This document shows, one piece after another, positions 21,595-35,891 of a stretch of 64,000 bases of DNA. The DNA lies in NCBI GenBank assembly GCA_963791045.1, contig CAWBQK010000018.1, positions 32,001-96,000 on the forward strand, in the 5' to 3' direction. Position 1 is the stretch's first letter; every line of letters begins with the position of its first letter. Made by a program: the position numbers and the translations under genes. The notes below the pieces were generated by a model that had not been told where the DNA came from, did no database searches, and was given only the letters and a program-made list of their open reading frames with translations. The stretch comes from Candidatus Latescibacterota bacterium. GTDB lineage: Bacteria; Krumholzibacteriota; Krumholzibacteriia; WVZY01.

Positions 21595-22452
21595 ATGAGG
21601 ATTGCCGTGGCAAGTGGAAAAGGGGGAACGGGGAAGACATTCGTTTCCACCAACCTCGCGAATGTGGCGAGCAAGACCGGTACCGTCGGGCTCTACGATC
21701 TTGATGTCGATGAGCCAAATTGTCATCTGTTTTTCGAACCGAAAAACGAATCGGTCGAGACGATCACGATGATGATTCCGACGGTTGACAAGGACAAGTG
21801 CACCGGGTGCGGAGTGTGCAGCGAAGTTTGCGAGTACAACGCGATCGTTTCGCTGCCGGGTGACGTGCTCGTTTTTGCTGAACTTTGTCACAGTTGCCAC
21901 GCGTGCGTGGAAATGTGTCCCGAGCACGCGTTGGAAGAGGGGGCAAAGGAAATTGGAACGGTCAGCGTTTCCCAGACGGGCTCGCTTTGTCTCGTCACCG
22001 GGCGGCTCGCGATAGGTCAGCCGGCAACGACGGCCCTGGTTCGAAAAACAAAGCAACGAGACGTTCCAAATGCCGATATCATATTGTACGACTCACCGCC
22101 GGGAACGACGTGTCCGGTTATTGAAGCGGTCAAGGATGTTGACTATGTCGTTCTCGTGGGAGAGCCCACACGTTTTGGGATCCATGATCTCGATCTGATG
22201 GTCAAGACCATTCGTCAGTTGGGACGGCCGTTTGGTGTCGTCGTAAACAAGGCTGCCGATGGTTATCCGCTCGTCGAAGAATACTGCGCCAAAAACGGAA
22301 TCGAGATCGTCCTTACGATACCGGAAATGGCCGAGATTGCCGGGGTGTACTCGCGGGGCGAACTCGTTACCGAGTCAATGCCGGTCATGGAGAATCTTTT
22401 TTTGCGGGCCCTGGAAAACATCAGCGAAGCTGTTCGGGAGGTGAAGGTATGA
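21595..22452 (+). CDS. MinD-superfamily P-loop ATPase with inserted 2[4Fe-4S] ferredoxin domain
   Basis: ASGKGGTGKT, DLDVDEPN, CTGCGVCSEVC, CHSCHACVEMCP, DSPPGTTCP. Confidence 0.92.
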   Translation: MRIAVASGKGGTGKTFVSTNLANVASKTGTVGLYDLDVDEPNCHLFFEPKNESVETITMMIPTVDKDKCTGCGVCSEVCEYNAIVSLPGDVLVFAELCHSCHACVEMCPEHALEEGAKEIGTVSVSQTGSLCLVTGRLAIGQPATTALVRKTKQRDVPNADIILYDSPPGTTCPVIEAVKDVDYVVLVGEPTRFGIHDLDLMVKTIRQLGRPFGVVVNKAADGYPLVEEYCAKNGIEIVLTIPEMAEIAGVYSRGELVTESMPVMENLFLRALENISEAVREVKV

Positions 22453-23330
22453 ACGAGATCGTCGTAATGAGTGGAAAGGGAGGGACGGGAAAAACATCGA
22501 TTGCGGCGGCGTTGGGAGTGCTGGCCGGACGCGATGCCGTTGTCGCGGACTGCGATGTCGACGCGGCCAACATGCATCTCCTATACGCTCCCGATACGCT
22601 TCGGGTGAATGAATTCTGGAGCGGCAAGACGGCGGCGATCGACACCGACAGGTGCATGAACTGCGGGTTCTGCGAGGTGAAATGCCGCTTTGATGCAATC
22701 CACGAACGCAATGGGGCGTTCGTTGTCGATGAGGTCGATTGCGAAGGTTGCTCGCTTTGTTACTACATGTGCCCGGAGAACGCCATATCGATGACAGATA
22801 ACCATGCCGGTGACTGGTTTGTATCAAAGAGCCGATTCGGGCACTGGTTCGTCCACGCGCACCTCGGGATCGCTCAGGAAAACTCAGGAAAACTCGTCAG
22901 TCAGGTGAAAAGTGAAGCCTCACAACTCGCCGCCCGCGAGCGGATTCCGTTTGTCATCATCGATGGCCCTCCGGGAATAGGTTGCCCGGCTATCGCTTCG
23001 GTTTCGGGCGCCGCCCATGTTCTTGTGGTGACCGAGGCCACTCAATCCGGTCTGCACGACCTCGAACGGCTGATCGATCTCATCGAGTACTTCAAAACAA
23101 GCGCGTCGTGCGTGGTAAACAAATTCGATGTCAATCCGGAGGTAGGGGAGAAGATCGCCGACCTTTGCCGGAAGCGTGGGGTCGATGTAATTGCGACGAT
23201 TCCCTACGACCCGATATTCAACGACGCGCTACGCGACGGAAAAACTCTGGTCGAAACCAAAGACCTGGCAATTACACAAAAGATCGAGGATATCTGGAAT
23301 CATTTGAAAAAGACGGGAGGTTCGGTATGA
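22449..23330 (+). CDS. MinD-superfamily P-loop ATPase with inserted ferredoxin domain (second paralog)
   Basis: SGKGGTGKT, DCDVDAAN, CMNCGFCEVKC, CEGCSLCYYMCP, ENSGKLV, DGPPGIGCP. ATGA overlap with the previous gene. Confidence 0.92.
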   Translation: MNEIVVMSGKGGTGKTSIAAALGVLAGRDAVVADCDVDAANMHLLYAPDTLRVNEFWSGKTAAIDTDRCMNCGFCEVKCRFDAIHERNGAFVVDEVDCEGCSLCYYMCPENAISMTDNHAGDWFVSKSRFGHWFVHAHLGIAQENSGKLVSQVKSEASQLAARERIPFVIIDGPPGIGCPAIASVSGAAHVLVVTEATQSGLHDLERLIDLIEYFKTSASCVVNKFDVNPEVGEKIADLCRKRGVDVIATIPYDPIFNDALRDGKTLVETKDLAITQKIEDIWNHLKKTGGSV

Positions 23331-23668
23331 AGATAGCGATCACGGCAACCGGCAATGGCTGGACTGAGACCATGGATGAGAGGTTCGGAAGAGCGAAGGG
23401 TTTTTTTGTGTGTGACACGGAAAACGATGAAACCTCGTACATCGACAATCTCAAGAATGTTAATGCCGGTCATGGCGCCGGGACGAGCACCGCACAGGCG
23501 GTTGTCGATTCGGGAGTGAAAGTCGTCATTTCGGGAAGGGTTGGACCCAAGGCGGGGTCGGTGTTGAAGGCGGGTGGTGTGAAGGTTTTTGTCTGTGGAG
23601 ATTCCCCGACAATAAAGGACGCTTTCGAGCGTTTTCGGGACGGGAAACTCCAGGAAGCAAGTGAGTAG
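23327..23668 (+). CDS. NifB/NifX family (FeMo-cofactor-binding-like) protein
   Basis: MKIAITA...RFGRAKGFFV...HGAG...VVISGRVGPKA. GGAGG RBS and ATGA overlap. Confidence 0.88.
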   Translation: MKIAITATGNGWTETMDERFGRAKGFFVCDTENDETSYIDNLKNVNAGHGAGTSTAQAVVDSGVKVVISGRVGPKAGSVLKAGGVKVFVCGDSPTIKDAFERFRDGKLQEASE

Positions 23669-23691
23669 TCCAGAAATGGAAGGAGGCAGTC

Positions 23692-24021
23692 ATGCCAGGC
23701 GGAGATAGAACAGGACCGCAATCGCAAGGTCCGAAGACAGGCAGAGGACTTGGATATTGCACCGGAAGCGATCAACCGGGATACGCCAATCCGGGGATCG
23801 GTGGTCGTGGATTCGGCCGTGGGTTGGGCGGCGGATTTGGCAGGGGCCGAGGACGCTGGTTTGGGCGTGGATTGAGACAAGGGTTCGAACCATTGCCGAT
23901 GTCTGCGACCGAAGCCGCACGTACCGATGAATCTAAGTTAGCGAACATGCAGGCGGAGATTGCAGATCTCAAGACAAAGATCGAGAAGCTGCTCAATCGG
24001 ATTGAGTCCGAAGGGAATTGA
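23692..24021 (+). CDS. DUF5320 family protein (Gly/Arg-rich, C-terminal coiled coil)
   Basis: MPGGDRTGPQSQGPKTGRGLGYC, GRG repeats, C-terminal heptads. Confidence 0.85.
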   Translation: MPGGDRTGPQSQGPKTGRGLGYCTGSDQPGYANPGIGGRGFGRGLGGGFGRGRGRWFGRGLRQGFEPLPMSATEAARTDESKLANMQAEIADLKTKIEKLLNRIESEGN

Positions 24022-24092
24022 TCGAAGCGGGGGCGACGTGATTCGATGACGCGCCGATCGCCGAAATTCCAAATCTGAACGGAGGAGAGGAC

Positions 24093-24464
24093 ATGCGGAT
24101 CGCCGTTGCATCGGACGATGGCAAAACCGTGGCGCTGCATTTCGGTAAAACGCGCGGGTTTCTTGTATTTGAGGTTGATGGAGGCGAAATCCGGAGCCGC
24201 GAATACATCTTGAACACGTTTACCGGTCACGCGAGGGGAATGCGTGGGGTGGATCAATCCGCCGATCGTCACGGCCCAATCCTGTCCGCGTTGTCAGGCT
24301 GTGAAGCGGTTATCTCGCTCGGAATGGGTAAGAGTCTCTACGAAGATCTCAGGAGCGCGGGAATAATCGCCTATGTGGTAAACGAGACCGATGCGGATGC
24401 AGCGTTAAGTTTGTATTTGCGAAACGCGCTTACCGATCATCCGGAAAAAGGATGCGATCACTGA
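24093..24464 (+). CDS. NifB/NifX family protein
   Basis: MRIAVASDDGKTVALHFGKTRGFLVFEV, LSGCEAVISLGMG. Confidence 0.85.
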   Translation: MRIAVASDDGKTVALHFGKTRGFLVFEVDGGEIRSREYILNTFTGHARGMRGVDQSADRHGPILSALSGCEAVISLGMGKSLYEDLRSAGIIAYVVNETDADAALSLYLRNALTDHPEKGCDH

Positions 24465-26577: not shown

Positions 26578-26764
26578 GTCGAATCTTGTCGCGGGGTTCG
26601 CTTTTTATTAACGTTCATTTCGCATTAAAAGTTCGGGTGTCCGAATTTAGTAATTATAACACGAGGCATGGTCCGGCGCCAAATTCGTATACATCGCGAT
26701 CAAAGTCTGTATAATTAATCGCCTCGATGTGATGTCACGTTGATTTGCATGAACAGGAGGGCTC

Positions 26765-28120
26765 ATGGTTAACAGACTTCTGATATTCCTCGTGTTGGGG
26801 GCCGTCGCGCTCGCCGCATGGGGTGGTGTCGCCGGGGCGGCCGACACTCCAGAAAAGGGCGCCGGGGCGATGGCCGCCGATGAAGCCTACAACAAGGCGA
26901 TGACGGCGAGGCGTGCCGTCGAACCTATCGAAGAGAGACTTGCCATTACCAAGAAGTTTCTCGATGATTATCCCGAGAGTAGCCATACGGCGAACGCGAT
27001 AAGTGCGGTCGTCTATTACCAGGGAAACGCGCTGGATGATATGGACGGCGCTATCGCATATGCCGAAGCCATCCGTGCGAAGATTACGGATCCCGACGTT
27101 GCCGACGCATTGGATAAAGAGCTGATGGTCGTTTATGGCGAGGCGGGCAAGATGGACAAGATGCTCGCGATTGCCAACACGATGGAGGCCGGCGATAAGC
27201 TCAAATTCAATGACTACTGGAGCATTATCGAAAGCGGTATGCAGGCCGAGGAATGGAAGCTGGTCAGAGACTACTGCGTTAAGGCAAAGGGCATGGCCAA
27301 CGCCGAGACGTTCAAATCCGACTGGCCCGACAACGACGTGAGCGGCGAAGAGCTCAAGGTAGCGGGAGACAACCGCACCGGCATGCTGATGATCGCCGAC
27401 GGTTGGGCGCGCGCGAACCAGGGGGAGACCGACGAGGCTCTCGCCGATTTCGCCGCGGCCGACAAACTTGTGCGGCGTTCGATGTTCGATCGCCCCGAGT
27501 ACAATCTCAACACGTACTGGGCCAAGACATCGCTGATGAAGGGCGACTACCAGGCGGCGATCGACCGTTGTGCGATCGATGCCCTCGTTATGAAAAACAA
27601 GGACGCCCTTGCCGGTTTGAAGACGGCATACGCCGGACTCAACGGTAGTGAAGACGGGTTCGATGCGTACACCAAAGATCTGCACAAGAAGATTGCCCCA
27701 CCGGTGGAAGACTTCGAGCTGGCAGATTACGACGGAAAATCGCACAAGTACGGAGATCTAAAAGGGCAGGTGACACTACTCGCTTTCTGGTTCCCCACCT
27801 GAGGCGGCTGCCGCGTGGAGTTACCACGCCTCGAGCCCCTCTGGCAGAAATACGGAGACAAAGGTTTCTCGGTCATCGCCGTTGAGATCGCACGCGATCG
27901 CGAACGGGCGACCAAGTTCATCGATGAGAACAAACTTACGTACCACCTTCTCGAAGACAACGAGAACGAAGCCGTCGTGCGCGAGCAGTTTGGTGTTGGA
28001 GTATTCCCGACGTCGTTCATGATCGACAAAGAAGGTAAGATCATGTACTGCCACATCGGTTTTGACAAAGGCGACGAGGAAAAACTCGAGAAGGAAATCC
28101 TGGAACTCGGCGGATTTTAG
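26765..28120 (+). CDS. Predicted selenoprotein: exported helical-repeat domain fused to a TlpA/AhpC-TSA thioredoxin-like domain, Sec at codon 346 (UxxC)
   Basis: ORFs 26765..27802 and 27815..28120 share a frame. Read-through gives DLKGQVTLLAFWFPT-U-GGCRVELPRL...GVFPTSFMIDKEGKI, with TGA at the first Cys position of the TlpA CxxC. Downstream SECIS-like hairpin. AGGAGG RBS and signal peptide. Confidence 0.85.
27803..27837 (+). promoter_or_regulatory. Candidate bacterial SECIS element
   Basis: GCGTGG (27813-18) pairs with CCACGC (27824-29) around loop AGTTA, with G at loop position 2 and the loop 16 nt after UGA. Lower stem GGCT/AGCC. Confidence 0.7.
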
Positions 28121-28152: not shown

Positions 28153-28192
28153 CGAAGCGGCCGGCGCGAAATCGCCGGTCGTTTCGCGTTTT
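28153..28192 (+). terminator. Intrinsic terminator after the selenoprotein gene
   Basis: CGAAGCGGCCGGCG / CGCCGGTCGTTTCG stem followed by CGTTTT. Confidence 0.65.
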
Positions 28193-28333
28193 GAGCGAGT
28201 TTTCGACGGCCCCAAACAATACTTGAATTAATCGGGGTTAAGCGATAAAGTGGCTCGGATATCCACGGCATTACGGCACACACCGGCCCGCCCGGGTCGG
28301 GGGAGGTTTTTTTCAGAAAGGGAGGTATGCCTG

Positions 28334-29584
28334 GTGGAGAAACGTACTGCATCTTTTATCACTACACTTCGTTGTCAGAACCGAACCGGAAACATCATTG
28401 TGATGATCGCGTTTGTTTGCGCGATTGCCGCGGCGTTTGTGACGGTTCCCGGCGAAGCAAGGGCGGACGAGGCGCTGAAGTTCAAGGTCTATGGGTTTTT
28501 GCGGTTTGACATTATGTCGAGCGATTCGCGAATGAATAACAACCTGGTGCCCATGTGGGTGTTGAACGAGTACACGCCCGATGCGATTAAGGACGATGCG
28601 AGCCTTGCCTATCATCCGCGTCTGACGCGGGTCGGTATGAAGTTCCAGGGTCATCCGCTTAGCGACAAATGGTCGCTCGACGGTGGGGTGGAGATTGACT
28701 TCCAGGTTTTTGACGCGGGCAGTGAGTCGCGGCAGGTGCCGCGAATGCGGCTTGGATTCATGCGGCTCAATTACAATGATCTTCATATTCTCGCCGGCCA
28801 GCATTGGGACGTCATATCGACGCTGTATCCAAACGTCAACCTCAACGGTGTCAACTGGAACGCCGGTAACACCGGTGACCGCCGGCCGCAACTTCGAGTG
28901 ACATTCTCGCCCGAGGTTGGGAACGGAAACATCAGGCTTACAGGAGCGTTGACGGAAGCGGGCGCCGTAAACATGTCGGATGTCGACAAGAACGGCGTGC
29001 CCGATGGGATCGACAGTTCGGTTCCCATGCTTCAGGGTTGGTTTGGAACCGAACAGAATATGGGAGAAAATGGGAGTATCAAAGCGGGTGTGTGGGGTCA
29101 CTACTGGGAAGAGAAAGACCTGCGCATTCCTCCCACTGTTCCTGAAATCGGAGACACGACGCTTGCAGATCTTACGTCGTGGAGTGTTGGAATCGATTTG
29201 AGAGTCCAGGCTGTTGAGTGGCTGATGTTCCAAGGCGAAGCCTGGACCGGCGAAACTCTCGGCGATATCCGAGGTGGCATCGGACAGACGATCAACGCTG
29301 ATGGCGAGGCGATTGGCGCCACCGGTGGATGGGTCGAGGCCGACATATCTCTGGGCGAGAAATTCGTACTCATCGGCGGATACACAATGGACGATGTCAA
29401 AGATGACGATATATCGGACGGGATGCGGGCGAAGAACCAGGCTCCTTACGGTGCTCTCCGCTGGAAGCCTTTCAAGAAACTGATGTTGTCGTGTGAGTAT
29501 ATCCGCTTCGAGACGACATACAAGAGTTACGAAGAGACATCGGTCAACAACCATATTGACCTCAATATGATGTACTTCTTTTAG
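28334..29584 (+). CDS. DcaP-like outer-membrane porin
   Basis: GGAGG 8 nt before GTG 28334. Signal peptide. FKVYGFLRFD, TRVG, VEIDF, PRMRLGF, LAGQHWD, RRPQLR pattern. Terminal YFF. Confidence 0.75.
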   Translation: MEKRTASFITTLRCQNRTGNIIVMIAFVCAIAAAFVTVPGEARADEALKFKVYGFLRFDIMSSDSRMNNNLVPMWVLNEYTPDAIKDDASLAYHPRLTRVGMKFQGHPLSDKWSLDGGVEIDFQVFDAGSESRQVPRMRLGFMRLNYNDLHILAGQHWDVISTLYPNVNLNGVNWNAGNTGDRRPQLRVTFSPEVGNGNIRLTGALTEAGAVNMSDVDKNGVPDGIDSSVPMLQGWFGTEQNMGENGSIKAGVWGHYWEEKDLRIPPTVPEIGDTTLADLTSWSVGIDLRVQAVEWLMFQGEAWTGETLGDIRGGIGQTINADGEAIGATGGWVEADISLGEKFVLIGGYTMDDVKDDDISDGMRAKNQAPYGALRWKPFKKLMLSCEYIRFETTYKSYEETSVNNHIDLNMMYFF

Positions 29585-32120: not shown

Positions 32121-35100
32121 TTAGTGTGTCACGACAAACTTGCGTGACACCGCCATCTTTGGTGTCTCCAGCTTGAGGAAATACACACCGCTCGCGAGAG
32201 TGCTCGCATCGAACTGGGCACTTCCTGATCCTGCCGGTATTTGCTCGTCCGCGAACACAATGGCCACGCGCCGTCCCAGAACATCGTAAATCGCCATCTC
32301 GGCGACGGCGGGTTGATCCACACTGTAGTCGAATCGAACCACCCCGTTTGCCGGGTTCGGCACCGGCGGCTTGACCACCATTGGCGAGAACGACGGTGTG
32401 TCATCTCCGATACCGGTTGGGACATTGTCACAGCCGTGGACACGCATATGAACGTACGGCGTGTAAAACCGGTCACCGGCGAGTCCGGCGTCATTGACCT
32501 GTATCGCGCCGTACGGAGTGAACGGAAAGCCCGTTGAGTCTTCCCAGTGGGGAAGCTCATTCACATTCGCGCAGACGAATGAGATGTCGATCTCCTCTCC
32601 GCCCGTCCACTCGAACGCCATCGGCACATCATGCCAGCGCATCCCCGGTCCCGATGTGTAAATCAAACTCTCGGCCATCAGCGCATCGCGACCGGTCTCG
32701 GTGGCGCTGTAAATCCGTGCGAGCAGGATTTCGCCTTCGGGGATATCGGCCATCACGCCGAGACCGTAGACCTGGGTTGTGTTCATCGATTCGACGAAGG
32801 CATCGTGGTCGAGGTTGCCACCGATCTGCGAGAATGGCGGGGGAATGCCGTCGGACGCTTTGGCCAGGTCGAAGGGATATCCACCGTTCGCGTAGTCATC
32901 CCAGTTGATCCAGAAGTGGGGGATATTGGTCGAGAGGTATCCGTTGGATTCCGCCTTGCGAACTTCGATCACGCCGTCGACCGTGTCGGGAAGAGACACG
33001 TCGAATTGGTTGACGGCGGGATAGAACCCGTCTCCCTGGAACGACAGCTGCAGGTTGTAGTCCTGTCCGTTCTCGAGATTCGCATGAAGAAACACTTCGT
33101 GGGACGCCATCCCGCCGGTTTCCACGGTGGCGGCTCCGTAACAGACGTGATCACCCCGGGTGTTCCCGGACGCTTCATAAAGCCGTGCGTGAATCTCCGT
33201 GCCGCGAGACAGATCCGCCTCAAAACCAAGCGAGGTCAGACGCATGTTCTCGAGCGCCCCAACGAACAGGCCGAGCTGTGTGTCCGTGGCGGATGTCTCG
33301 TGTACCGGTCCGTCCGGCTGGAGGTCGGTGGTGTGCCCGGTCCATTCCTTCGACGTACTCGAGGCGAGAATCGTTATGTAGGGACACCAGTTTGTTCCTT
33401 CGGCGTCTCCGTTGAAGGCGCCCTCGCGGACACGAAGCAATCCCGCCACATCGTACGGGTATGTAACGTCGATCTCGTTTGCGTACGCGCGGTACAAAGA
33501 CGATGAAATCTCAAACGCGATCTCGTAATCCTGGCACGCCTCGAGTTCGATGCCGATCGGGATGAACTCGTGACCGAACACCGAATTCGGAGCATAAGAC
33601 GTGTTTTCCGCAAGAAGCGGTCCACGTGTATTGCCGTCGGCCTCGTAAACCCTGACGGTGAGCGGCTCGGTGGGCCCGGCAACATTGGGGTCGACTGCGC
33701 AAAGATCGATGTCCTCGAGCGCCGTGACAAAGAGGCTGTGTTCGCCAGCCATCTGTCCCGAATAGTAGGTTTCGACTTCGGGTTCGAGCCATACGACGGA
33801 GCCCCTGCATTCATACGGTTCAACGACGGCGAGGAGAAGCCACGCCAGGGGGGGGGTGGAGCCCGTGCAATTGACAAACGCGATGGTGCTGACGTGATTG
33901 CCCGGCTCTTTGTACCCGGCGAAACGGTTCAGCGAAAACGTGACGTCCTGTGACGCCCCGGGAAGAAGCTGCCCTCCAGTTATTGACGGTGTCAGCCAGT
34001 CCGCCGTGGTGTTTATATGCCAGTTCGCCATAGTCTCGCCCGCGTTCTCCACCGTGTAAGTGAAAGTGTTCGGCCAGAAGAACCCGTTTTCGAAGCCGGT
34101 GGATATTTGCATTGTCGAAGGCGTGATGGAAAGGTCGCTGTTGGCGAAATACGCGTACGCGCCAATCTTCGTCGTCCACGACGGCACCGGGTCGATCGAG
34201 GCGAATGCACCGTGGGTCCAGAATGTACGGCTGTCCGCGTGATCGAGCGCGACCCCCGAGTATGCCCCCCAGCGGTAGGGGTTGCCGGATGTCCCCCCTC
34301 CGCCGAGGGAGTAGTCGGCGACCCCGGCGGCAATTGTGCCGGATTCTATTGTCGAGAGAGGGAACATCGAAAGGATGTCGTAAATGAACGATGGGTACAT
34401 CACGTCGCTGCATGCCGCCGACGTAAGGATCAGATTGGAGTATTCATCCACATCGATCGCCGGAAAAGCGCGTGCGGTTCCGGGGTAGTTCATCCAGAAG
34501 GTGTTGGTGAGGAGGGCGGACGTACTAATCTTGTCGACGTAGACGGCCGACTTGTCACCCTCACCATATTCCTCAAGGGCGGCTCTCGCGCCGTAGAGAA
34601 TTCCTCCGCTGTACACCGCGTCCGTGTATCGGCAATCCAACGACCGGATAAATGTCCCGTTGGGTTGCTGCATTGCGGGTGGTGTCTCATATGGGTAAAT
34701 GCCTATCGAAAAACCATCGAGAACCGGCGACGAGACGGTGCCGGAGATCCTCCAAACCGTTCCAATGTTGCCGCCCTGGTACTTGTTATTGAGAAGATAT
34801 GTATAACCGGCCCATGAGTTCATCTGGGCGGGCCGAATCGCAAATGCAGCGGATGCATCGCCGGGGTTTGTGGAACCGGTGAATGAGGTGTAACTCACCG
34901 ATCCTGGTTGATACAAATCGTCCTTGGGGATAACCGAAATGGTTGTGCCTTTGAAGGAATACGTGCTGACATCGTACCTGTTATAGGTGATGTACAAGGC
35001 CTCTGGGTCATCGGCGATATACATATTGTCCGCAAAACCATTGGTCGGCGCGTTCCAGGAAATAATGTAGACGGCGAGCCACCCCTCCGTTGGATCGCTG

Positions 35101-35891
35101 GAGTTGGAAACAGCCACCCGTAGATAGGAATCGTTGGTCGACGTATTCAACTCCGTGAAGACGACAACCCAACGCCCCCGCCAGTCATCGTATATAACGC
35201 GGGGATCAAAAAAAGTGTTGCTCGATACCTGTCCGAAGTAGTCGAGGAATGTGCCTCCCTCGAGCCAGTTGCCGCATTTGTCGTATACGGCGACCATGTC
35301 GCTGGCAACAGCGACGAGATGCTCGGGGCCGACATCGATATCGGGGCTGGCGTTGGCGAAGCCGGTGAAGCCGATCGCGTTGAACTTGATCATGTCGCCC
35401 GAGACCATGCTTGCCGGCGCGACGGCCTCGCCCGCGGGAAATTTGGAGCCGGTGTTGCTCTTTTGAAAATCATTCGGAACGAATCGTTCTTCGGGGTTCA
35501 TTAGAGATGGTAATTGGGGAACCCGCGCCGCCATAAAGTCGGTAGGCCTCGTGGTACGTTTTGACCTGTCGACAACAACCGGGTGGCTTTCCATGGTCAT
35601 GGACTGGGGTTGGATGACGATGTCGGGTTCTCGCGCGGGAGTTCGCGCCTCGGCGATTAGTCTCGCCTGCCGGATGGCTTCGGCCCGTCTGCCGGGATCT
35701 TTTGGAAGCGGTGGGATGAGTTCGCCGTCCCTCCACCGGGCCTCGTCTGCTATTTCGTTTTTGTCAGAAGAATTTGATGCGGATTGTTCCTGGGCGGATG
35801 CGTTGTTCGTGGTGACGAATCCCACGCCGGCAAGGACGCCGGCTGCCAGTAGCAGGGAACAACATACCCAAAGACCACGCGTGTGTCTCAT
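32121..35891 (-). CDS. Secreted multidomain protein: propeller-like N-domain, BACON-like Ig domain, three tandem ~155-aa repeats, T9SS-like CTD
   Basis: Signal peptide. SPDIDVGPEHLV...FDPRVIYD...RWGAYSG pattern. YTVENAG...WHINTTADWLTPSITGGQLLPG. CTD PNPANG...IYDVLGRRV...LASGVYFLKL...RKFVVTH. Confidence 0.8.
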   Translation of the reverse strand: MRHTRGLWVCCSLLLAAGVLAGVGFVTTNNASAQEQSASNSSDKNEIADEARWRDGELIPPLPKDPGRRAEAIRQARLIAEARTPAREPDIVIQPQSMTMESHPVVVDRSKRTTRPTDFMAARVPQLPSLMNPEERFVPNDFQKSNTGSKFPAGEAVAPASMVSGDMIKFNAIGFTGFANASPDIDVGPEHLVAVASDMVAVYDKCGNWLEGGTFLDYFGQVSSNTFFDPRVIYDDWRGRWVVVFTELNTSTNDSYLRVAVSNSSDPTEGWLAVYIISWNAPTNGFADNMYIADDPEALYITYNRYDVSTYSFKGTTISVIPKDDLYQPGSVSYTSFTGSTNPGDASAAFAIRPAQMNSWAGYTYLLNNKYQGGNIGTVWRISGTVSSPVLDGFSIGIYPYETPPAMQQPNGTFIRSLDCRYTDAVYSGGILYGARAALEEYGEGDKSAVYVDKISTSALLTNTFWMNYPGTARAFPAIDVDEYSNLILTSAACSDVMYPSFIYDILSMFPLSTIESGTIAAGVADYSLGGGGTSGNPYRWGAYSGVALDHADSRTFWTHGAFASIDPVPSWTTKIGAYAYFANSDLSITPSTMQISTGFENGFFWPNTFTYTVENAGETMANWHINTTADWLTPSITGGQLLPGASQDVTFSLNRFAGYKEPGNHVSTIAFVNCTGSTPPLAWLLLAVVEPYECRGSVVWLEPEVETYYSGQMAGEHSLFVTALEDIDLCAVDPNVAGPTEPLTVRVYEADGNTRGPLLAENTSYAPNSVFGHEFIPIGIELEACQDYEIAFEISSSLYRAYANEIDVTYPYDVAGLLRVREGAFNGDAEGTNWCPYITILASSTSKEWTGHTTDLQPDGPVHETSATDTQLGLFVGALENMRLTSLGFEADLSRGTEIHARLYEASGNTRGDHVCYGAATVETGGMASHEVFLHANLENGQDYNLQLSFQGDGFYPAVNQFDVSLPDTVDGVIEVRKAESNGYLSTNIPHFWINWDDYANGGYPFDLAKASDGIPPPFSQIGGNLDHDAFVESMNTTQVYGLGVMADIPEGEILLARIYSATETGRDALMAESLIYTSGPGMRWHDVPMAFEWTGGEEIDISFVCANVNELPHWEDSTGFPFTPYGAIQVNDAGLAGDRFYTPYVHMRVHGCDNVPTGIGDDTPSFSPMVVKPPVPNPANGVVRFDYSVDQPAVAEMAIYDVLGRRVAIVFADEQIPAGSGSAQFDASTLASGVYFLKLETPKMAVSRKFVVTH

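Follow-up and report, generated by a model that had tools for sequence, protein, structure and literature searches.

The region at positions 26765 to 28120 (+ strand) of the window, by which we mean the whole 64,000-nucleotide stretch of DNA that was analyzed, is very probably one gene for an exported selenoprotein in which UGA codon 346 is read as selenocysteine. Translation of this region gives a single frame of 451 codons plus a TAG stop (positions 28118 to 28120) with one internal TGA at positions 27800 to 27802, which is codon 346 and is flanked by the residues LLAFWFPT-U-GGCRVELP. An earlier inspection of the DNA (here called the sequence-only reading) had described a single frame split by this TGA, and translation confirms it. 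Under translation table 11, the same DNA yields two open reading frames, one of 345 amino acids (26765 to 27802) and one of 101 amino acids (27815 to 28120). That gene callers would split the gene in this way had also been predicted, and the database entries are in fact N-terminal pieces of ~330 to 350 amino acids that are labeled "hypothetical" or "TPR repeat protein." Taken as a whole, the earlier observation is confirmed and its interpretation is supported. What is expected of a bacterial selenoprotein gene, an in-frame UGA that aligns with Cys in homologs and lies within a protein that is conserved on both sides, is found here.

We compared the window gene with 29 full-length relatives from Latescibacterota, Acidobacteriota, and Fibrobacterota metagenome-assembled genomes (MAGs); full-length identity between the window protein and 28 relatives is 32 to 62%. 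The aligned codon is TGA in all 29 full-length loci of named MAG records, and the minority forms that use Cys have it at this same position, which is the pattern that the sequence-only reading had proposed looking for, together with retention of the downstream hairpin, which is also kept. Among 60 related genomes, 10 have a full-length gene, at 11 places that each contain one TGA, 10 of which were read at the motif. The family is large and mostly of the selenocysteine type: clustering at 50% identity gives at least 161 clusters (E values up to 1e-30), and of its 150 best database representatives, 130 end precisely at the selenocysteine site while 9 carry Cys. In a FastTree phylogeny built from the N-terminal domains only, the Cys forms are scattered, which suggests at least 4 independent switches. 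Most relatives appear to use selenium, and Cys seems to have replaced selenocysteine secondarily, more than once. There are 21 invariant columns in the 29 sequences, and 17 of these are at or after residue 322.

The same comparisons bear on whether the TGA is a sequencing or assembly error, with a true codon of TGC or TGT in an ordinary Cys-type TlpA-like gene. This explanation could draw on the existence of Cys forms in the family, on apparent frame breaks in lepA on the same contig, and on the fact that the window's own reads were not located: in a search of sequencing runs for the window's own stretch, the best run contained 0.13 of the sampled words. However, the TGA is the same in 29 of 29 independently assembled relatives, the great majority of database representatives stop at this site, and the lepA frame breaks resemble indels, not substitutions. 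In addition, contigs of relatives from four metagenome runs cover positions 27768 to 27853 with no listed difference at 27800 to 27802. A substitution error at this codon is not credible when independent assemblies and the contigs of relatives from four runs show the same TGA and hairpin, and we regard this explanation as having almost no chance of being correct. One 99%-alike contig piece from the sequencing runs stops before the TGA. The genome itself is a MAG that is 81% complete with 5.8% contamination.

The sequence-only reading had called for a search of the genome for the selenocysteine machinery, and all of the components sought were found. Profile matches to selA (460 bits), selB (374 bits), and selD (373 bits), and a tRNA-Sec (66 bits) that is located on the window's own contig, are all over their curated cut-offs in the same genome. 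The selD gene of this genome itself contains a TGA. The presence of the selenoprotein gene among relatives does not track that of selA because selA is nearly universal there (over cut-off in 56 of 61).

The genetic code is not changed in this organism, since TGA still terminates ordinary genes: it is the stop codon of 6 other long frames in the window and, in three relatives, of this same selenoprotein gene. This argues against the UGA being read without selenium, either because the code has been reassigned to Trp or Gly or because the hairpin stimulates near-cognate read-through. In other systems, stable hairpins 3' of stop codons can favor read-through, and selenocysteine at residue 346 is a prediction, so such decoding has something in its favor. 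Against it are also the complete selenocysteine machinery of the genome and the location of the UGA at the catalytic Cys position, exactly where the Cys forms have C. Decoding without selenium is, in our view, highly improbable.

The RNA element expected downstream of a selenocysteine codon is present as well. A bacterial SECIS core with a 6-bp stem, GCGUGG/CCACGC, and the loop AGUUA is found at positions 27813 to 27829 (+ strand), made up of GCGTGG at 27813 to 27818, AGTTA at 27819 to 27823, and CCACGC at 27824 to 27829. The hairpin starts 10 nucleotides after the UGA, and its loop starts 16 nucleotides after the last base of the TGA, so that the G-containing loop lies where the sequence-only reading had placed it. 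Its form agrees with the bacterial SECIS described in PMC1088965, a stem-loop that directly follows the UGA and whose small apical loop contains G. The 66-nucleotide stretch folds with -26.5 kcal/mol (z, -2.4), and 4 of 200 shuffled sequences fold as well; this statistic is modest taken alone, so the weight of the case is carried by comparative evidence.

The core hairpin GCGUGG-AGUUR-CCACGC keeps its pairing in all 30 sequences; 2 G-U pairs occur, and the 1 compensatory change, from G-C to U-A, is coupled to replacement of R350 by L. Only 3 of the 17 hairpin nucleotides vary (the two bases of the closing pair and a single base of the loop), in genes whose proteins are down to 32% identical, and the same hairpin sequence occurs in Latescibacterota, Acidobacteriota, and Fibrobacterota. 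Synonymous variation is nearly absent at codons 350 to 355, for which CGC is used in 28 of 28 cases, GTG, GAG, TTR, and CCA each in 29 of 29, and CGC in 26 of 29. By comparison, other conserved columns with four- or six-fold degenerate codons have 0.9 to 2.0 bits of codon entropy, and the other conserved Pro residues are mostly encoded by CCC or CCG. The peptide CRVELPRLE also occurs in a distant Cys protein, where it is encoded as CGA GTC GAG CTG CCC CGG from the Arg onward; the hairpin cannot form from these codons, although this is a single control. RVELPR is also conserved as a peptide, one that is common to a Cys-type TlpA, and part of the nucleotide conservation therefore reflects the protein. 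Since the core hairpin is nearly invariant, covariation amounts to one event only, and the case for an RNA element under selection rests mainly on the missing synonymous variation.

A possible lower SECIS helix (positions 27801 to 27841, + strand, in which 27801 to 27809 pair with 27834 to 27841) lies within the minimum-energy fold. Its conservation was not supported: 74% of cells are paired compared with 38 to 56% in slid controls, and it is absent from the RNAalifold consensus. Rfam at its gathering thresholds and ARAGORN gave no match in the window, the SECIS included, and the hairpin that follows the UGA of selD, folded for comparison, has no clear motif in common with this one.

The UGA lies within a TlpA/ResA/DsbE-like thioredoxin-fold domain that extends over residues 313 to 451 (positions 27701 to 28117, + strand) and is recognized by Pfam, Foldseek, and phmmer. 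Two Pfam families match across the TGA at residues 313 to 443, Redoxin (PF08534) with 72.3 bits (cut-off, 26.6; E value, 5e-20) and AhpC-TSA (PF00578) with 69.7 bits (cut-off, 26; E value, 3e-19). Foldseek aligns the C-terminal domain to 3gl3 and ResA structures over 138 columns with a TM score (target) of 0.90 and an rmsd of 1.7, and phmmer of this domain against the PDB gives an E value of 1e-19. Domain score and fold thus both place it in the TlpA/ResA/DsbE-like family (Redoxin/AhpC-TSA, cd02966). As the sequence-only reading had claimed, the UGA (positions 27800 to 27802, + strand) is at the site of the attacking Cys of the TlpA/AhpC-TSA motif: it aligns with the first Cys of CxxC in the solved DsbE/ResA-type proteins 3gl3, 2l5o, and 4nmu, which makes selenocysteine 346 the predicted attacking residue of U-G-G-C. 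Cys349 (TGC at positions 27809 to 27811, + strand), the putative resolving residue of UxxC, is invariant in the 29 sequences. In the AlphaFold model, U346 and C349 lie where helix 347-366 begins, the place of a CxxC-type pair at helix alpha-1 in this family. The conserved proline loop is intact downstream, as had been noted, with VFPTSFMID at residues 413 to 421; Pro415 (FPT; positions 28007 to 28009, + strand) is invariant in the 29 sequences, corresponds in the alignment to the proline of "PTSF" in relatives with solved structures, and is presumed to be a cis-proline. Glu352 is conserved as in the TlpA/ResA/DsbE family. The description of FWFPT-U-GGC as a nonstandard motif has to be softened, since the solved Cys protein 2l5o has FWFPSCPGC.

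The continuity of this fold weighs heavily against translation that stops at the UGA, which would make a 345-residue exported TPR protein followed by a remnant or a small second protein. The two table 11 open reading frames are exactly those that this would require, databases list the first of them as a protein, and some termination at UGA in competition with selenocysteine insertion is expected in bacterial selenocysteine decoding. However, the thioredoxin fold spans the UGA, with strand beta-1 and W-F-P-T before it and helix alpha-1 and C349 after it; conservation of the protein is highest downstream of the UGA, always in the same frame, in the 29 sequences; and the unchanged hairpin codons are not expected of a remnant. 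We consider two separate products or a decayed gene to be very unlikely, and a single selenoprotein that continues through the UGA remains the preferred reading.

The architecture that the sequence-only reading had proposed was a signal peptide, a TPR-like N-terminal domain, and a TlpA/ResA-like C-terminal domain. Models and fold searches bear out the two domains, while the signal peptide was judged by eye only. The full AlphaFold model has a pLDDT of 90.2 and a pTM of 0.82, with pLDDT below 50 at residues 1 to 31. By eye, the N-terminus (MVNR, a hydrophobic run, and AGA|AD) resembles a Sec-pathway signal peptide, predicted to be residues 1 to 25 (positions 26765 to 26839, + strand). Similar N-termini are seen, also by eye, in 10 of 10 sequences aligned from the start codon, and some relatives have lipobox-like motifs such as LAGC, LSGC, and VAGC instead. 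From these features we infer that the product is exported.

Residues ~33 to 310 (positions 26861 to 27694, + strand) are modeled as a TPR-like helical solenoid of 15 helices, with the repeated helix pairs and superhelix of a TPR solenoid. Modeled alone, this domain has a pLDDT of 96 and a pTM of 0.90. Its top fold matches are TPR proteins throughout, with Z values of 12.4 to 14.8, a range that helical repeats easily reach, and a Foldseek E value of 3e-4. Pfam matches to TPR families are weak: TPR_2 matched 22 of 29 members at E values of at most 1, the best being 1.9e-5. No Pfam family matched the N-terminal domain of the window protein itself.

The flanking DNA contains candidate expression signals; in the search of sequencing runs, no RNA run containing the gene was listed. 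A promoter-like sequence, TATACA-16 nucleotides-TATAAT, is at positions 26688 to 26715 (+ strand; a pattern match only, with 10 of 12 matches in a consensus scan), and a Shine-Dalgarno-like AGGAGGG is at 26755 to 26761 (+ strand), 3 nucleotides before the ATG; relatives are likewise GG-rich just before their start codons. A possible terminator (hairpin CCGGCG-CGAAAT-CGCCGG with a T-rich tail) at positions 28160 to 28193 (+ strand) is weak because it is not in the terminator scan output. In a comparison of 30 loci, no gene is kept beside the selenoprotein gene beyond close relatives, and an ABC ATPase is upstream of it in 6 of the 30. Pfam annotation of the neighboring genes in the window gave no pathway link, and no cytochrome c maturation genes adjoin the selenoprotein gene. 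There is one DsbD/CcdA-type gene in the genome.

Based on these features, the product would be made and would act as follows. Translation would start at ATG 26765, the hairpin would recruit SelB with Sec-tRNA(Sec) at UGA 27800 to 27802, and selenocysteine would be inserted at codon 346, after which translation would go on to the TAG at 28118. The signal peptide would take the product across the inner membrane, with some relatives probably being lipoproteins. The mature protein would then be a TPR-like solenoid of ~280 residues packed on a TlpA/ResA/DsbE-type fold with the active site U346-G-G-C349. Its selenolate would attack a disulfide or other oxidized sulfur in an envelope protein, Cys349 would resolve the resulting selenylsulfide, and the oxidized Se-S centre might be rereduced through a membrane electron carrier, DsbD/CcdA, while the groove of the TPR domain would bind the client protein or peptide. 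We infer the reductase direction, the dependence on DsbD, and the role of the TPR domain; the disulfide reductase with its own substrate-recruiting domain that the sequence-only reading put forward may be the function of this protein.

The same selenoprotein might instead carry out other chemistry, as a Prx-like scavenger of peroxide or hydroperoxide, as a disulfide isomerase or oxidase, or as a protein that handles polysulfide, selenium, or metals, and we give this an appreciable, though minor, probability. The AhpC-TSA score is close to the Redoxin score, there is a weak thiol peroxidase match (NF006960, 30.8 bits versus a cut-off of 140), no neighboring gene fixes the pathway, and in the literature, similar proteins are placed in a "Prx-like thiol:disulfide oxidoreductase" group whose function is unknown. 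In contrast, the closest sequences and folds are those of ResA, DsbE, and TlpA, which are envelope reductases, a DsbD/CcdA-type gene is present in the genome, and the motif is UxxC rather than the TxxU given for peroxiredoxin selenoproteins in the literature.

Beyond an envelope reductase, we suggest, as a speculation that we think is probably wrong in at least some part, that these proteins form a large group of envelope "chaperedoxins" with an ancestral dependence on selenium. In them, a TPR clamp would grip envelope proteins that are unfolded or oxidized, a selenocysteine-Cys centre would reduce or reshuffle these, and selenocysteine would be the original and strongly preferred residue. If so, the hairpin shared among phyla would imply either strict SelB constraints or a gene that moves with its own recoding signal. 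Other consequences require only that the selenoprotein reading itself holds. The Cys relatives of most selenoenzymes are far more numerous than the selenocysteine forms, according to a 2026 review; this ratio would be reversed here, which would make the family well suited to studying where selenocysteine is irreplaceable. The 161 or more clusters are filed in public databases as truncated "hypothetical" or "TPR repeat" proteins with their catalytic domain uncalled, and a family model with a selenocysteine-aware rule would mend annotation in many sediment MAGs. Common phyla of anoxic sediments would need selenium in the cell envelope, and the hairpin would show cleanly, in nature, how an RNA signal constrains codon choice and could double as a search motif.

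Several known systems resemble the window protein in part. Bacterial CnoX/YbbN and plant TDX combine a Cys-type thioredoxin fold with a TPR module that binds client proteins, and the role that we propose for the TPR domain is modeled on this client binding. These proteins are cytoplasmic or cytosolic, the domain order of CnoX is opposite to that of the window protein, and to our knowledge none of them uses selenocysteine. The ResA/TlpA/CcmG (DsbE) proteins share with the window protein the fold (the TM score of 0.90 and rmsd of 1.7 are to 3gl3 and ResA), the layout W-x-x-x-[C/U]-x-x-C-x-x-E-x-P with a later P-T-S-F, and a DsbD/CcdA-type partner gene in the genome; export, predicted by eye for the window protein, would be a further likeness. 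Unlike them, the window protein has selenocysteine in place of the attacking Cys and a TPR-like domain of ~280 residues in front, and its gene is not beside cytochrome c maturation genes. It scores below the NCBIfam cut-offs for ResA (NF002854, 81.8 versus 170), TlpA (NF047696, 55.8 versus 230), and DsbE (TIGR00385, 46.3 versus 123.15). NF041054 (WAxxUGC_long) likewise describes a ResA-like selenoprotein with extra sequence, and residues 315 to 427 align to positions 85 to 195 of this profile. However, this profile of 354 positions has its redox domain near the start and the motif UGC versus UGGC in the window protein, which reaches 46.7 bits against a cut-off of 300, in the redox domain only.

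Both the Sargasso Sea study and a table of the 2026 review include UxxC selenoproteins with a TlpA/Prx-like domain and a hairpin after the UGA, the same combination as in the window protein. The words "TPR" and "tetratricopeptide" have no occurrence in the available text of that review, and we found no description of a TPR-fused TlpA-like bacterial selenoprotein in open-access papers and bioRxiv. The architecture of the window protein may already be included under the labels "Thiol-disulfide isomerase-like" (cd02966, UxxC, in the Sargasso Sea list) or "Prx-like thiol:disulfide oxidoreductase." What the sequence-only reading had called unusual is so in part: exported UxxC thioredoxin-fold selenoproteins as a kind have been known since 2005, while the TPR fusion, which the published passages on these proteins do not mention, looks new, as do the dominance of selenocysteine forms and the missing annotation. 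Since UxxC thioredoxin-fold chemistry is expected, this finding extends a known kind of selenoprotein rather than founding a new one.

The gene at window positions 26765 to 28120 on the + strand translates as a single frame of 451 codons, which ends in a TAG at 28118 to 28120 and whose sole interruption is a TGA at codon 346 (27800 to 27802). Translation table 11 splits this frame into a 345-aa ORF and a 101-aa ORF, the latter beginning at an in-frame GTG. Residues 313 to 443 match Pfam Redoxin (72.3 bits) and AhpC-TSA (69.7 bits), both matches span the TGA, and the motif around it is FWFPT-U-GGC-RVELP. Alignment to solved structures puts the TGA at the first CxxC Cys of a DsbE-like protein from Chlorobium (FWASWCGPC), of a thioredoxin-like protein from Neisseria (FWFPSCPGC), and of a Bacillus ResA (FWGTWCKPC). 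Translation, Pfam matches, and structure alignments agree with the sequence-only reading that one frame is split by a TGA at the position of the attacking Cys. The hairpin that it described is found at 27813 to 27829, with a loop that begins 16 nt past the TGA. The observation is right in each checkable detail, its interpretation as a hidden selenoprotein gene is supported, and the finding is real.

A six-frame search of 60 related genomes returned 11 full-length matches (39 to 62% identity) spread over 10 genomes, each listed with one internal TGA, which lies within W-F-P-T-U-x-x-C in the 10 loci returned for these matches. One copy (genome G016, loci L027/L056) additionally has a TAG 19 codons past the Sec codon, after ...KKYRD, so that either this copy is truncated or the assembly is wrong there. 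One genome for each prokaryotic species was then scanned, using one pattern downstream of the TGA and one in the N-domain, neither of which could favor TGA over TGC; this gave 30 loci. Twenty-nine are full-length relatives (32 to 62% identity; ~10 of them are records shared with the 60-genome search), from MAGs labeled Latescibacterota, Krumholzibacteriia, Acidobacteriota, Thermoanaerobaculia, Holophagae, Chitinivibrionia, and Fibrobacteraceae, and in every one the aligned codon is TGA. The remaining locus is a distant actinobacterial TlpA-like gene in which the redox domain alone matches and the codon is TGC. In the 29-sequence alignment, the best-conserved stretch comprises W342, P344, T345, U346, C349, V351 to R355, and E357, and conservation runs on to the C terminus (P415, H430, G432, and F433).

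The genetic code is unchanged, because TGA terminates six other long frames within the window and the selenoprotein gene itself in three relatives. The Sec machinery presupposed by the sequence-only reading is all present in the genome: selA, selB, and selD are above curated cutoffs (selA in 56 of the 61 genomes of the class sample), and tRNA-Sec scores 66 bits against a gathering score of 47. The tRNA-Sec gene (G000:C18:158792-158887, locus L013) is on the window's own contig, ~63 kb past the window end, which links the machinery to this organism and argues against MAG contamination as its source. The selD product is a selenoprotein itself, with an in-frame TGA in ...SCAG-U-AAKF... (L010:1531, on contig C6 of the same genome); the fold downstream of that TGA does not obviously resemble the hairpin of the window gene. 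Four independent lines (relatives, downstream conservation, code, and machinery) agree that the TGA is real and is read as Sec, and we are nearly certain that the region is a genuine selenoprotein gene. The 60-genome search also returned TlpA-like redox-domain matches with one in-frame TGA from other families of the same class (e.g., G059:C3:65236-65634, G044:C20:39851-40303, G039:C2:262558-262959, and G049:C32:157322-157783), which may represent additional thioredoxin-fold selenoproteins whose N-terminal parts differ.

Folded singly, the 66 nt around the hairpin give -26.5 kcal/mol (z -2.4; 4 of 200 shuffles are as stable), which is suggestive, not strong; comparison across relatives is stronger. 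All six GCGUGG/CCACGC pairs form in 30 of 30 sequences (29 distinct rows). The closing pair is G-U in two of these and U-A in locus L057, which has CGC to CTC (R350L) on one side and the synonymous CGC to CGA on the other. The RNAalifold consensus is the core hairpin alone; the lower helix of the single-sequence fold, with 74% of cells paired and absent from that consensus, is unconvincing. Because the hairpin hardly varies, we tallied codon use at conserved amino acid columns in 29 sequences, leaving out L056 (which has the TAG) and L080 (not full length). Codons 350 to 355 are CGC (28/28), GTG (29/29), GAG (29/29), TTA or TTG (29/29, never CTN), CCA (29/29), and CGC (26/29), while elsewhere in these genes the conserved Pro, Leu, Val, Gly, Ala, and Arg columns draw on three to five codons (0.9 to 2.0 bits), and CCA occurs at the three other conserved Pro columns in 0, 2, and 5 of the 29 sequences. 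The one control, a Cys protein with the same peptide, is encoded by CGA GTC GAG CTG CCC CGG, with which the hairpin is impossible. Relatives' contigs from four metagenome runs align to the window almost only at 27768 to 27853, where the differences listed are at third codon positions and a loop A/G (27823), with none in the TGA or stem arms, a position without a listed difference not being thereby proven identical.

The sequence-only reading had anticipated that gene callers would split such a gene, and the databases bear this out, as do the two table 11 ORFs. None of the 99 proteins from a word-based search with the read-through protein is full length; ~92 cover only the N-terminal 60 to 76% of the query, are mostly 330 to 350 aa (range, 270 to 382), and bear the name "hypothetical protein" or "TPR repeat protein." An N-domain profile found 966 matches among 1.84 billion representatives (235 at E ≤1e-10 and 161 at E ≤1e-30). 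Among the best 150 of these 966, 117 stop at W-x-P-T, 13 more (counted by eye) stop there too but have a different final residue or FFFPT, 11 are fragments, and nine have C-x-x-C at the Sec spot (CIGC, CGPC, CAFC, CGSC, CQKC, CGEC, and CSAC), eight of the nine being 432 to 470 aa. Cys forms thus exist, as a small minority of the family, with Cys aligned to the UGA, the classical criterion. A FastTree of N-domains with 126 rows (119 Sec type, including the window protein, and 7 Cys; fragments of <290 aa and P0245 were left out, and P0233 was dropped by the program) needs 7 state changes, and well-supported branches force at least 4 of these. This quick, midpoint-rooted tree, which has several long branches, suggests repeated replacement of Sec by Cys in a basically Sec-type family.

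A full-length AlphaFold model, built from the 29-sequence alignment with Cys standing in for Sec, has a mean pLDDT of 90.2 and a pTM of 0.82, with pLDDT of <50 at residues 1 to 31 only. Residues 313 to 451 superpose on DsbE-like/ResA structures (target TM 0.90; rmsd, 1.7 Å; ~138 columns). Modeled alone, residues 33 to 310 form 15 helices (pLDDT 96), and the best fold matches are all TPR proteins (Foldseek E from 3e-4), with VIA-align Z of 12.4 to 14.8 among the 50 matches listed, values that helical repeats easily reach. Weak Pfam TPR matches occur in 22 of 29 N-domains (best E, 1.9e-5), and the window's own N-domain has no match to Pfam TPR models; the models show a predicted TPR-like solenoid, nothing more specific. 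By inspection, the N terminus begins with basic sequence, continues with a hydrophobic run, and includes AGA|AD, and several relatives instead have an L-[AS]-G-C-type lipobox, which we read as putative export signals. The genome has one gene for a DsbD/CcdA-type membrane electron carrier, with a Cys TlpA-like gene ~3 kb from it.

The sequence evidence supports a model in which the in-frame hairpin would direct SelB-dependent Sec insertion at UGA 346, yielding a 451-residue precursor. Judging by its fold and by established knowledge of ResA, TlpA, and CcmG, this product would be exported, U346 would be the nucleophile, C349 would resolve the selenylsulfide, and electrons would arrive via the DsbD/CcdA-type carrier. 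The TPR solenoid may bind the client, by analogy with TPR-thioredoxin proteins. We lean slightly toward disulfide reduction in the envelope as its role, over isomerase, oxidase, or peroxidase activity.

The next gene downstream (28250 to 29584, +) encodes 444 aa with no Pfam match, ending in ...NMMYFF; its product looks like an outer-membrane beta-barrel, and the gene is not a conserved neighbor of the selenoprotein gene at other loci. Pfam annotation places a run of genes within 21595 to 24464 (+), for two P-loop ATPases of the MinD/ParA type into which 4Fe-4S ferredoxin motifs are inserted, a DUF5320 protein, and a small protein of the Nitro_FeMo-Co family (dinitrogenase cofactor-binding-like), and a 1,256-aa protein with a C-terminal Por_Secre_tail sorting domain (type IX secretion signal) at 32121 to 35891 (-). 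Outside the window, lepA (EF4; L007:1471-3359, ~159.5 to 161.4 kb on the same contig) is readable only by switching between at least three frames, which points to assembly indel errors or a broken gene and fits the remark in the sequence-only reading on single-base errors in this contig.

UxxC thioredoxin-fold selenoproteins are a well-known kind; tables of the Sargasso Sea study include "Prx-like protein," "DsbA-like," "DsbG-like," and "Thiol-disulfide isomerase-like protein," all UXXC. The window protein reaches 46.7 bits against the cutoff of 300 for the ResA-like selenoprotein model NF041054, and no NCBIfam model matches it at its cutoff. The available passages on known UxxC families make no mention of a TPR fusion with such a selenoprotein, and in the full text of open-access papers and bioRxiv preprints, we found no account of a TPR-fused selenoprotein of this type. 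The family may already be included under one of these broad labels. The finding extends the prokaryotic selenoproteome on firm ground and clearly corrects the annotation, with no new mechanism. What looks new relative to known systems is the combination of TPR and TlpA domains, the size of a family that has gone unannotated, a SECIS core hairpin of the same sequence across three phyla, and an excess of Sec over Cys forms, against the published rule that Cys homologs of selenoproteins far outnumber Sec forms.
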